From: an uncultured Holophagales bacterium
GTDB lineage: Bacteria > Acidobacteriota > Thermoanaerobaculia > Multivoradales > UBA5704
Assembly: GCA_963842525.1 (NCBI GenBank)
Contig: CAWJGT010000009.1
Coordinates: forward strand, 1,536,001 to 1,600,000
Length of the DNA stretch: 64,000 nt
Direction of reading: 5' to 3'
Shown here: one piece after another, positions 42,401 through 64,000 of the stretch
How the letters are laid out: every line of letters starts with the position of its first letter
How positions within the stretch are numbered: the first letter of the stretch is position 1
Notes under the pieces: model-generated
The model's input: only the letters and a program-made list of their open reading frames with translations
What the model was told of the DNA's origin: nothing
Database searches by the model: none
Made by a program: the position numbers and the translations under genes

Positions 42401-45400
42401 GCTCAAGGCCGGGAGCGCCTACGTGCCGCTCGACCCCGCCTATCCGCGCGAGCGCCTGTGTCGCATGCTGGAGGGCTCGGGAGTGGCGGCGGTGCTGACC
42501 CAGGAGGCCCTGCGCGAGCTGCTGCCGGCCGGCGCGCCATCCTTGACTCTGGAGGAGCTGGGGGTGGGCGGACGGGGCCGGAAGCGGGGAATCGTGGCGC
42601 CGGAGTCGTTGGCCTACGTCATCTACACCTCGGGCTCGACTGGCCGCCCGAAGGGGGTGGGCATCGAGCACCGCAGCGCGGCCGAGCTGCTGGCCTGGGC
42701 GGCGAGCGCCTACAGCCGGGAGGAGATCGCCGGGGTCCTCGCCGTCACCTCGATCTGCTTCGACCTGTCGGTGTTCGAGCTGTTCGTGCCGCTGTCGCTC
42801 GGCGGCACGGTGATCCTGGCGCGCGACGCCCTGGCGTTGCCCGAGCTGCCGGCCTGGGGCGAGGTGACGCTGATCAACACGGTGCCGTCGGCGATGGCGG
42901 AGCTGGTGCGTCAGGGCGCCGTGCCGTCGTCGGTGAGGACGGTGAACCTGGCGGGCGAGCCGCTGCGCAACGACCTCGCCCAGGCGATCCATGCCGCCGG
43001 CGGCGCGGGCGTGCGGCGGGTGCTCAACCTGTACGGCCCGTCGGAGGACACCACCTACTCCACCGGTGCCGAGGTGGTGCCGGGCAGCCGGCGCGAGCCC
43101 TCGATCGGCCGCCCCTTGCTGCGCACGCAGGCGTACCTGGTGGACCCGTCGGGCGGGGCGGTGCCGCTGGGGGGGGCCGGAGAGCTGTGGCTCGGCAGCG
43201 CCAGCCTGGCCCGGGGCTATCTCGGGCATCCGGAGCTGACCGCGGAGCGGTTCGTGCCCGATCCCTTCGGCGTGCAGCCGGGCAGACGGCTTTATCGCAC
43301 CGGCGACCTCGCCCGCTTCCGCACCGACGGCGAGCTCGAGTACCTGGGCCGGGTGGACCAGCAGGTCAAGGTGCGCGGCTTCCGGATCGAGCTGGGGGAG
43401 GTAGAGGTCGCCCTCGGGCAGCACCCGGACGTGCGCGAGGCCATTGCCGGGATCGTGGAGAGCGCCCCGGGGGAGAAGCGCCTGGTCGCCTGGGTGGCGG
43501 CGGGCGTGCCGGGAGAGCCGCTGGCGCCGCGGCTGCGGAGCCACCTTCGCGCCCTGCTGCCCGAGCCCATGGTGCCCTCGCTCTTCGTCGAGGTGGACGC
43601 CCTGCCGCGGCTACCCAACGGCAAGGTGGACCGGCGCGCGCTGGCCTCTCTGGCAGCGCGGGAGGAGGCGCGGCCGGCCGGCGACGGCCGGGCGCCGCGC
43701 ACCGCCGAGGAAGAGCTGCTCGCCACCCTGTGGGCCGGGGTGCTGGGACGCGAGGCCGTCGGCCTCCACGACAACTTCTTCGACCTCGGCGGGCACTCCT
43801 TGCTGGCGATGCGCATCGTCACCCGGGCGAGCGAGGCGTTCGGGATCGAGGTCCCGCTGCGCTGGCTGTTCGAGCAGCCGACCGTGGCGGATCTCGCGCG
43901 GCGGGTCGCGGCCGCCCGCAGCGAGGAGCGCGGGCTGCTGCTCCCCTGCATCGCGCCGGTGCCGAGGACCGGCCCCCTGCCGCTGTCCTTCGCCCAGGAG
44001 CGGCTGTGGCTCGTCGATCAGCTCGATCCCGGCAACCCGGCCTACAACATGCCGCTGGCGCTGCGCCTCCAGGGCCACCTGGACGCCGGAGCGCTCGCCG
44101 TGGCGCTCGGCCAGGTGGTGGCCCGGCACGAGGTGCTGCGCACCACCTTCGGGATCGCCGGGGGCCAGCCGGTGCAGGTCGTGCACCCGGTCGGTTCGCC
44201 GCTCGTGCCGGGCGTCGACCTGGGCGCCCTGGAGCCGGGGGAGCGCGAGGAGGAGCTGGCGCGGCTCCTGCGCGAAGGCGCCGCGGCCCCCTTCGACTTG
44301 GCGCGCGGGCCGCTCTGGCGCGTCGTCCTGTTCCGCCTGGCGCCGCGGGAGCACGCCCTGTTCTGCAACCTCCACCACATCGTCCATGACGAATGGTCGA
44401 CGGGGATCCTGGTGCGGGAGCTGGAGGCCCTCTACGCCGCCATCCGGAGCGGCCGGCCCTCGCCCCTGCCGCCGCTGCCGGTGCAGTACGCCGACTTTGC
44501 CGTCTGGCAGCGGCAGTGGCTCACCGACGAGTTGCTGGAGGGCCGGATCGATGAGCAGCGGCGGCGGCTGGGGGGCGGCCTGCCGGTCCTGCGGCTGCCG
44601 ACCGACCGCCCGCGCCCGCGGCGGCCGAGCTTCCGCGGCGGCACGATCCCGTTGCGCGTGCCGGCCAGCCCGGCCAGCGCCCTCGCCCGCCTGGGGCGCG
44701 AGGAGACCGCCAGCCCGTTCATGGTCCTGCTGGCGGCGCTCAAGGCCTTCCTCTACCCGTACAGCGACCGCTCGTCCGTGGCGGTGGGGACCGACTTCGC
44801 GGGGCGGGGGCGGCTTGAGGTCGAAGGCCTGCTCGGCTTCTTCGTCAACGTCCTGCTGCTCCACACCGATCTCGGCGGGGACCCCAGCTTCCGGGAGGTG
44901 GTGCGCCGGGTGCGCTCCTCCACCCTGGAGGCCTACGCGGACCAGGACCTGCCTTTCGAGCGCGTGATCGCGGGCCTCCAGCCGCAGCGGGAGTCGGGGG
45001 TCCCCGGCGTCCAGGTCCTGTTCGTCCTCAGGAGCCCCGAGAGCGCCAGGCTGCGGCTGCCCGAGGTGGACGCCGCCCAGATCCCCCTGCTGCGGGACAC
45101 CTGCAAGTTCGACCTGGTGCTGGTCGTCGACGCCGGCGAGGAGGAGATCACCGGCGCCCTGTCCTACAGCACCGATCTGTTCGACGGCGGCACCGCGGAC
45201 CGTATCGCCCGGCAGCTCGAGGGCTTCCTGGTCGCGGTCGCCGCCGGCCCCGAGATCCGTCTCGGTCCATTGCACGAAAGACAGCAGATCTTCACCCAGG
45301 AAAGGGGGTCCGGCATGTCCGGCGAGATGGAGGAGAGGGACGGCAGCCCGCGTCCCAAGACCACGTTCAAGAGGCGCAGCGGCAGCCGCAGAGGGGGGGT

Positions 45401-63900: not shown

Positions 63901-64000
63901 GGACACTCGCTGCTGGCTACGCAACTGATATCGCGGGTGCGCAAGGTCTTCCGCATAGATCTCCCTCTGCGCGCTCTGTTCGAGGCGCCTCAACTGGACC
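60921..64000 (+). CDS. NRPS interface-A(Glu)-T, 3'-partial, with a +1 frameshift at ~62424 (sequencing error or pseudogene)
   Basis: The C-like domain has SLPSLCADSWS with no HH. Removing one A from GGAA at 62421-62424 restores LGARPDRPVALCLERS...KAGGAYVPLD. The shifted frame contains YTSGSTGRPKG, FDASVKQ, FDCTPS, LIGGE, NVYGPTECTVD (code DAKDLGVVDK, Glu), NGKVDR and GGHSL up to the window end. Confidence 0.88.

Follow-up and report, generated by a model that had tools for sequence, protein, structure and literature searches.

Two predicted interface-domain β-hydroxylation units, for Asp and for Glu, in one acidobacterial NRPS/PKS line

The window analyzed here is a 64,000-nucleotide stretch of DNA from an uncultured Holophagales bacterium (C9:1536001-1600000 of the source assembly). 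It carries part of a co-linear row of nonribosomal peptide synthetase (NRPS) and polyketide synthase (PKS) genes that probably contains two interface-domain β-hydroxylation units. Each unit would be one module split over proteins: the upstream protein would end in an active condensation (C) domain, a TauD-type Fe(II)/2-oxoglutarate dioxygenase would come next (fused to the C domain in unit 1, free in unit 2), and the following protein would open with a catalytically dead C-fold domain, the interface (I) domain, ahead of an adenylation (A) and a thiolation (T) domain. As to chemistry, binding and order of steps, the A domain is predicted to load Asp (unit 1) or Glu (unit 2) onto its T domain, the dioxygenase would hydroxylate the β-carbon of the T-tethered residue, and the upstream C domain would then condense the growing chain onto the hydroxylated residue. 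The I domain would serve as an adaptor for the hydroxylase, not as a catalyst. In unit 1, a B12 radical S-adenosylmethionine (SAM) methyltransferase of the PhpK family, encoded between TauD1 and I1, probably tailors the same carrier-bound Asp. The domain order, motifs, A-domain codes, clade membership, neighborhood statistics and sequence relics described below are read directly from the DNA.

All genes of both units lie on the + strand. Unit 1 begins at the end of a giant NRPS open reading frame (ORF; stop codon at 46398-46400), which Pfam and a hidden Markov model (HMM) built from the C domains of the window show to close with a C domain at 43926-45272 (622 bits against this HMM, also matched by Pfam Condensation, with HHIVHDEWS at 44373). 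TauD1 follows as an in-frame fusion behind this C domain (45345-46370, stop at 46400; Pfam TauD). After a spacer of 563 nt (46401-46963) comes a gene for a B12-binding radical SAM protein of 552 residues (46964-48622; Pfam Radical_SAM and B12-binding, TIGR04479), and then the gene for the I1-A-T protein of 1117 residues (48649-52002). Within the latter, the I1 domain spans 48649-49944, the A core 50536-50931 and the GGHS motif of the T domain 51643-51661. Unit 1 is non-contiguous, since the radical SAM gene separates TauD1 from the I1 gene. The terminal C domain at 43926-45272 would join an upstream chain ending in Ala to the Asp of unit 1.

Unit 2 starts in the next gene (51995-59848), whose ATG at 51995 overlaps the stop codon of the I1-A-T gene. 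Pfam, the same HMM and motifs give its product the order C-A(Gly code)-T-C-A(Pro-like code)-T-C, and the last C domain (58373-59725, with HHIVADAWS at 58820) is the predicted condensing partner of the Glu unit. TauD2 is a free-standing protein of 341 residues (59864-60889; Pfam TauD). The I2-A-T protein begins at 60921 and runs past the end of the window at 64000, with the I2 domain reaching to 62210, the A core at 62803-63195 and the GGHS motif of the T domain at 63895-63913. It is not a tri-domain protein; I2-A(Glu)-T forms the head of a longer NRPS that extends ~9.7 kb beyond the window.

The A domains of the two units have the codes DLTKVGHVG (unit 1) and DAKDLGVVD (unit 2). Nine positions were extracted by landmark alignment, and the tenth (Lys517) lies outside the extraction. 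The first code is taken here to specify Asp and the second Glu; the Asn and Gln readings used below are assumed on the same basis of Stachelhaus code meanings. A preliminary description, made by a model from the letters of the window, had already proposed two triads of C, TauD and I-A-T. Both are found where it placed them, the first as a C-TauD fusion to 46400 followed by I-A-T at 48649-52002 and the second as a terminal C domain in gene 51995, TauD at 59864 and I-A-T from 60921, and in both I domains PSLCAD does replace HHxxxDG. Its ten-letter codes hold for the first nine positions, and the final Lys falls beyond what was extracted. Its triads hold for the parts and not for their compactness, given the radical SAM gene inside the first and the long NRPS headed by the second. 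The radical SAM gene, relics at 46449-46876 and a frame break at 62423 are absent from that description.

The source assembly comprises 9.95 Mb in 34 contigs and has a mean GC content of 67.8%. All 13 organism-named rows among the 120 best relatives of its RpoB are Thermoanaerobaculia (89-95% identical). The genome is NRPS-rich, with 395 matches to C-like domains, of which 272 are near full length; these were gathered with the HMM built from the window's own domains. The NRPS and PKS genes form a single co-directional row on the + strand, from ~8 kb upstream to ~25 kb downstream of the window, and the gaps between them are short or overlapping throughout.

Several observations support the identification of the PSLCAD domains as NRPS interface domains. 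The PSLCAD motif stands at the HHxxxDG column of both I1 and I2, and both match nearly the full Pfam Condensation profile (104 and 194 bits, respectively). The HH motif is missing in 18 of the 272 near-full-length C-like domains of the genome. Only nine of the 272, all among these 18, have the pattern [PS][AS]L[CA]AD, and in the tree they make up a clade of their own (support 1.0). When 80 foreign loci are added, the smallest clade that holds both I1 and I2 has 73 of 502 C-like domains, again with support of 1.0. None of its members has HH and most come immediately after a TauD gene, whereas the 19 other His-less domains fall outside it. In a tree of the I domains from which eight near-identical Microcoleus-type rows of the 73 were dropped, the I clade stands apart from six catalytic C domains of the genome, four of them from the region (SH-aLRT branch support of 99). 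The C-domain phylogeny, with its distinct and TauD-linked His-less clade, thus agrees with the earlier suggestion of non-catalytic interface domains.

The surroundings of the nine I-like domains in the genome fit the same reading. An HH-bearing C domain lies directly upstream, on the same strand, of all nine. The gap between this C domain and the I-like domain is ~120-145 nt in five cases and ~1.1 kb in two cases with a TauD gene in between (I2 is one of these); it is 2.3 kb where two TauD genes intervene and 3.4 kb at I1, where TauD1 and the radical SAM gene intervene. The A domains behind the nine have codes for Asp (one), Glu (two), Asn (four) and Gln (two). Interface domains are therefore carried by Glu, Asn and Gln modules, beyond those for Asp and His.

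The five I-like domains that lack an adjacent TauD gene are at C3:527042, C34:294802, C3:1538673, C3:588969 and C3:445974, with codes for Gln, Gln, Asn, Asn and Asn, respectively; the TauD gene nearest to C3:445974 is 12 kb upstream. Elsewhere in the genome, CmlA_N was found only downstream in the window's own cluster and on contig C34. A search with PF05118 gave no match in the genome, and its controls were likewise matchless.

Both predicted hydroxylases have the features of TauD-family enzymes with a 2-His-1-carboxylate metal site. TauD1 and TauD2 are 48% identical, score 170 and 172 bits against Pfam TauD (cut-off 27) and share the metal-binding His, Glu and distal His columns, which are invariant in all 25 aligned TauD sequences. 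That they act on the T-bound residue is suggested by the NRPS fusion and by the neighborhood in which relatives occur. To survey that neighborhood, foreign loci were fetched by TauD alignment alone: 577 of 598 pattern matches encode relatives, and the best 80 loci were kept. These are mostly from Cyanobacteriota and Acidobacteriota, with some from Chloroflexota and others, and they hold 85 TauD copies, 75 of which have at least 2.5 kb of downstream DNA. Downstream of the 75, an I-like domain follows within 600 nt in 56 cases and at 1.1-2.1 kb in six, a normal C domain in three and no C-like domain in ten. Of the A domains that follow these 56 I-like domains, 48 have a code for Asp, six for Asn, one for Glu and one for another residue. 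Upstream, an HH-bearing C domain lies within 600 nt of 61 of the 85 TauD copies, and ten copies are fused to the C domain. The arrangement that had been suggested at the outset, a split module in which the upstream C domain condenses and the I domain goes with the hydroxylase, fits both the active C domain upstream of every genomic I-like domain (9/9) and the I-like domain downstream of most TauD relatives (62/75).

In each of the two window C domains ahead of a TauD, another residue takes the place of Gly in HHxxxDG: Glu in the motif at 44373 and Ala in that at 58820. Of the 61 foreign C domains ahead of TauD, 18 have such a change (17 to Ala, one to Glu), a count confined to C domains in this position.

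A further hint comes from evolutionary distances. Across 42 dereplicated C/TauD/I triples, TauD distances follow I-domain distances with r = 0.84 (0.79 as a partial correlation that takes the upstream C domain into account) and those of the upstream C domain with r = 0.45 (0.02 as a partial correlation). Distance pairs of this kind are not independent. TauD-I distances covary far above those of TauD and upstream C, which therefore hints that TauD and I travel or evolve as a unit. The two I-TauD pairs may recognize their partners orthogonally, as the preliminary description held. Taken pair by pair, to see whether TauD1 and I1 are mismatched, the correlation of TauD and I distances is r = 0.13-0.35 for cognate and r = 0.16-0.18 for crossed combinations, ranges that overlap.

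The trees place the two units in different company. The TauD tree, a quick IQ-TREE run on 51 of 93 rows (the remaining 42 come mostly from a large Asp/Asn clade), has a 28-row clade of stand-alone copies beside Asp or Asn modules. TauD2 and all five Glu-labeled TauD sequences lie outside it, in a poorly resolved grade, and TauD1 groups with two C-fused, Asn-linked TauD sequences (SH-aLRT 90). For I2, the tree gives a cluster (SH-aLRT 98) with I domains from L020 and L026, both loci of Pyrinomonadaceae. The A code at L020 is Glu-like; the I domain of L026 is a near-copy of that of L020, and its A domain lies off the locus. I2 is 36-37% identical to these two and to the Glu-linked I domain of locus L089. 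Searched by region, I1 found only relatives of at most 33% identity. A search with I2 alone against species-representative genomes gave 36 pattern matches and zero relatives. TauD2 gave 7809 protein matches at E ≤ 1e-20, none informatively named, and in the PDB only At3g21360 and one unnamed TauD-like entry.

A tandem TauD pair stands before I-A(Glu) at L020, and L026 shares both the TauD pair and the I domain. The genome itself has a second Glu unit (C23:106001-124000, locus L110), with a C domain, a TauD in a 651-residue ORF, a free TauD, I-A(Glu code)-FkbM-type methyltransferase-T and then PKS modules.

Interface-domain β-hydroxylation units of siderophore NRPSs were reportedly defined by Reitz et al. 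2019 (PNAS 116:19805). Both window units share with them the order C, fused or free TauD, His-less C-fold domain, A (for Asp, in the siderophore units) and T, an order also seen in many cyanobacterial loci among the 80 related loci. They differ in that the second unit loads Glu rather than Asp or His, in the acidobacterial host and in the radical SAM gene inside unit 1. Siderophore hydroxylases carry the subtype names TBH_Asp and IBH_Asp as well as IBH_His (PMC12971057). One fused and one free hydroxylase stand before two Asp modules in the cyanochelin B cluster (CcsFGH/CcsI and CcsK/CcsL; PMC12628792), and the potashchelin cluster likewise has one fused and one free hydroxylase (PMC7100376). 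For Asp units of the cyanochelin type, chemistry like that predicted here has been demonstrated (PMC12628792). The presence of a fused and a free hydroxylase in one cluster has precedents.

Hydroxylation of Glu also has precedents. In the myxoglucamide pathway of Cystobacterineae sp. [quoted passage not shown] The hope that an interface-dependent Glu hydroxylase would extend the known scope is thereby overtaken, since the reaction has been reconstituted in that system (PMC13638107). The myxoglucamide enzymes share with unit 2 a TauD-type oxygenase that acts on PCP-bound Glu beside an I domain, with an upstream C domain that condenses onto the hydroxylated residue. Compared by description, the myxoglucamide oxygenase is fused to a C domain, as in the Asp unit of the window, whereas that of the window's Glu unit is free; the hydroxyl group of the myxoglucamide pathway is described as cryptic, the residue ending as a vinyl γ-amino acid. 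AMB is cited as a further case of Glu hydroxylation (PMC13638107). Glidomide GlmF is cited as a stand-alone dioxygenase that needs an I domain (PMC13638107); it shares this pairing with unit 2, and its substrate is described as His. KtzO and KtzP of kutzneride biosynthesis are free-standing Fe(II)/2-oxoglutarate enzymes that hydroxylate the β-carbon of carrier-bound Glu only (PMC11611013). Likened by description, they resemble TauD2 in being free-standing and in having carrier-bound Glu as substrate. To our knowledge, an interface domain is not part of how KtzO and KtzP have been described. At its core, the window shows one more instance of an established design, which alone alters little. What it contributes is a free-standing TauD alongside I-A(Glu) in Acidobacteria, with a predicted β-hydroxy-Glu that may stay in the product instead of being cryptic.

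The unit 1 junction has an unusual composition. GC content is 0.70-0.77 up to 45 kb and 0.68-0.70 in TauD1, drops to 0.55-0.58 at 46.5-48.5 kb and is 0.62-0.67 beyond. The step, overall from ~74% to ~62%, separates a high-GC block of ~55 kb, whose NRPS genes have 72-77% GC, from a low-GC block of ~60 kb with NRPS genes of 61-67% (C9:1525001-1640000). It falls within the unit 1 junction, where relics of an I gene and of a TauD gene lie in the spacer. A direct relic of the 5′ end of an I gene at 46449-46484 is 78% identical to 48655-48690 (the first 36 nt of the I1 gene), and an inverted relic at 46526-46604 is 80-83% identical to 48694-48780 (the next ~80 nt of the same gene). On the + strand, 51 nt at 46826-46876 are a relic of the 3′ end of a TauD gene (73% identical to 46304-46354); this relic lies ~90 nt upstream of the radical SAM start and matches the last 15 positions of the TauD profile in frame. 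Each relic exceeds all 500 of 500 mononucleotide shuffles, and a wrong-orientation control was reached by 390 of 500. Within the spacer, GC content is 66% on the left, around the I relic, and 55-56% on the right, around the TauD relic. These features suggest that the junction was rebuilt, either by splicing of two related lines at the TauD/I boundary or by a duplication on entry of a radical SAM cassette, and on the basis of the relics at 46449-46876 TauD1 and I1 may not be an ancestral pair. The relics at the GC step look as if two assembly lines had been joined by nature at the boundary of a split module, a type of breakpoint sought by NRPS engineers, and this scar, like the radical SAM gene, is a part worth following.

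The Glu gene is split over two frames in the assembly (60921-62681 and 62269 onward), and a surplus base at 62423 marks the switch. This base is absent from contigs of three soil metagenome runs from three studies, one near-identical to the window, one ~94% alike and one a short piece; a fourth soil run (X4) has no coverage of 62423, and the soil runs share only 0.05-0.20 of sampled words. Leaving the base out gives 1026 stop-free codons to the window end. In the same assembly, rpoB (C9:670281-674541) is in two frames that correspond to residues 1-79 and 80-1421 of a 95%-identical relative. Because three soil contigs lack the base and rpoB is also frame-broken, the break at 62423 is most likely an assembly indel. 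Two further C domains are frame-split downstream, at L009:17652-17740 (~78.7 kb in window numbering) and L010:3926-4704 (~85.0 kb), and these breaks may likewise be assembly indels.

Three other explanations have to be weighed. It is unlikely that hydroxylation by the Glu unit is cryptic, with β-hydroxy-Glu dehydrated or decarboxylated to a vinyl or dehydro amino acid as in the AMB and myxoglucamide pathways. That outcome is lent some weight by the published I-A(Glu) case, which ends in a vinyl γ-amino acid, and by AMB, which starts from carrier-bound hydroxylated Glu (both PMC13638107), as well as by the second Glu unit of the genome, on C23, where two TauD genes are followed by PKS modules. 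On the other hand, the C domain behind the Glu T domain is high-scoring and ordinary, and the dehydrating C domain of AmbE is the last of its 40 PDB matches (79 bits versus 352 for the best). The Glu module leads on to a normal Asn-code module, as read with C, A and TauD profiles made for this study, and the window's Glu unit has one TauD where AMB has two. Nor does unit 2 look like a myxoglucamide-type cryptic pathway, in that its oxygenase is free and the next C domain ordinary; the search for an MxgE-like C-FMN monooxygenase was not exhaustive. The C domains behind both units are ordinary and far from that of AmbE, which therefore weakly favors hydroxyl groups that are retained in the product.

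It is also improbable that the line is not one working pathway, whether through a chimeric join at ~46.6 kb or because the low-GC half is a decaying acquired cluster, so that TauD1 and I1 never pair. The step from 0.70-0.77 GC before 45 kb to 0.55-0.67 after 46.5 kb (genome mean 0.678), the three frame breaks in the low-GC half, the position, exactly at the step, of the relics from the start of a lost I gene and from the end of a lost TauD gene, and a Mu-like transposase at the far end of the low-GC block all lean that way. Against a join made by the assembler, the relics are 73-83% alike to their counterparts and include an inverted piece, which points to an old rearrangement, unlike a switch between near-identical sequences. 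Against decay, none of three independent contigs has the sole checkable frame break, and rpoB is broken as well; both observations point to assembly indels. A C-TauD protein depends on an I-A-T partner, and such a partner comes after it on the same strand, in a row where all genes are co-directional with short gaps or overlaps. Very improbable is a reading in which free amino acids or another residue are the substrates of the dioxygenases and the His-less C-like domains are structural leftovers. Some TauD/CAS-like enzymes do hydroxylate free amino acids (PMC11611013), ten of the 75 TauD relatives have no C-like domain downstream, and the I domain was dispensable in one system (PMC13638107). 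But TauD1 is covalently part of the synthetase, 62 of the 75 relatives have an I-like domain downstream, TauD-I distances covary far more than those of TauD and upstream C, and the A codes behind adjacent I domains are for Asp, Asn or Glu in 55 of 56 cases.

Several points weigh against two interface-domain hydroxylation units, which nonetheless remain the preferred explanation. A TauD gene lies within 2.3 kb of only four of the nine I-like domains in the genome, and the foreign loci, having been chosen by TauD, show that TauD goes with I and not that I always goes with TauD. Membership of the I domains and hydroxylases in the published clades is judged from motif, position and neighborhood; none of the chains among 41 PDB matches is named as an I domain. 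I1 falls within the His-less clade on a long branch with no firm placement there. The Glu-linked TauD sequences do not form one clade (five changes over five rows), and the tree gives TauD2 no settled position. The sole Glu system tested in vitro, that of MxgA and MxgB, has an I domain that proved dispensable (PMC13638107). Finally, indel errors in the assembly together with the sharp GC step at the unit 1 junction leave room for a chimeric join.

The radical SAM gene inside unit 1 scores 637.2 bits against TIGR04479 (PhpK family; cut-off 600), has CxxxCxxC at residue 261 and a GC content of 55-58%. [quoted passage not shown] The window gene shares with them the profile score, the B12 and radical SAM domains and the Cys motif; it differs in its location at a split NRPS junction and in having relatives fused to a half C-like domain, to T or to C-T-TE. 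Matches at E ≤ 1e-30 occur in five of 301 genomes of a phylum sample, the source genome counted. The latter has three copies, and every one comes immediately after an NRPS gene with C as its last domain. One paralogue (C3:504447-506042, 60% identical) stands after a terminal C domain and before a C-like domain whose N-terminal part is missing, joined by A (Asn code), and this half C-like domain is nearest to ordinary C domains, not to I domains. A second junction of C and half C-like-A(Asn) lies at ~C3:516600, 10 kb beyond the paralogue.

Relatives of this gene are often joined to NRPS parts. A HMMER search returned 463 cluster representatives at E ≤ 1e-30, and among the best 150 of these 33 have at least 700 residues, the closest carries a T domain and another has the order rSAM-C-T-TE. 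Of 30 C-terminal extensions tested, 22 fit a profile that represents the C-terminal half of C domains. This profile was built from six of the 22, and its scores for the corresponding half are 84 bits in an ordinary C domain, 60 bits in I2 and 26 bits in I1.

Unit 1 is not alone in having a gene between TauD and I, as four foreign loci hold another gene at this place. One is in Dictyobacter arantiisoli, where a distant radical SAM gene (L028:7993-9777) separates C-TauD from I-A(Asn). The others have a class I methyltransferase (L091:7902-9368), an asparagine synthase (L082:8037-9947) and, at the fourth locus, a dihaem-oxidoreductase-like piece. The first three of these loci belong to other phyla. 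Genes for a second tailoring step on the residue thus seem to gather between TauD and I, and as an insertion site for such genes this slot helps structure prediction from sequence.

Because the relatives of the radical SAM gene are often fused to NRPS parts, on-line C-methylation of Asp is the boldest open reading. Tentatively, the enzyme may be a second on-line tailoring enzyme of the carrier-bound Asp that together with TauD1 would give a C-methylated, hydroxylated Asp (e.g., 3-hydroxy-3-methyl-Asp), and it may represent an undescribed class of radical SAM methylases embedded in NRPSs, for which a condensation-fold domain would be the adaptor, much as I is for TauD enzymes. A single search of the literature turned up no account of such methylases. 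Against methylation, NRPS domains are absent near the two nearest foreign orthologues over the 20-33 kb examined, and the gene may be a recent insertion.

Farther downstream, the same cluster has an asparagine-synthase-like gene, a carbamoyltransferase, a methyltransferase and a CmlA-like diiron β-hydroxylase (L009:18518-L010:4704 and L010:13615-15207). A third, distant TauD (137 bits) is also present, immediately ahead of an A-T-C protein without an I domain. With this third TauD and the CmlA-like β-hydroxylase among the downstream tailoring genes, several hydroxylated residues are likely in the product. An rve/Mu-type transposase and an AAA ATPase gene (L010:16841-19061) lie at the far end of the low-GC block.

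Upstream of unit 1, the giant NRPS appears to have undergone a recent internal duplication of modules. Six successive C domains (24822-42113) share [LM]HHIASDGWS and score 699-721 bits against the window's own HMM, and two A domains have the identical code DATKIGQVA. The 10790-residue ORF listed for this gene (14028-46400) overlaps the preceding NRPS ORF (5878-15420) by ~1.4 kb in a different frame; its first C domain begins near 15462, and the true start of the giant gene is probably near 15420.

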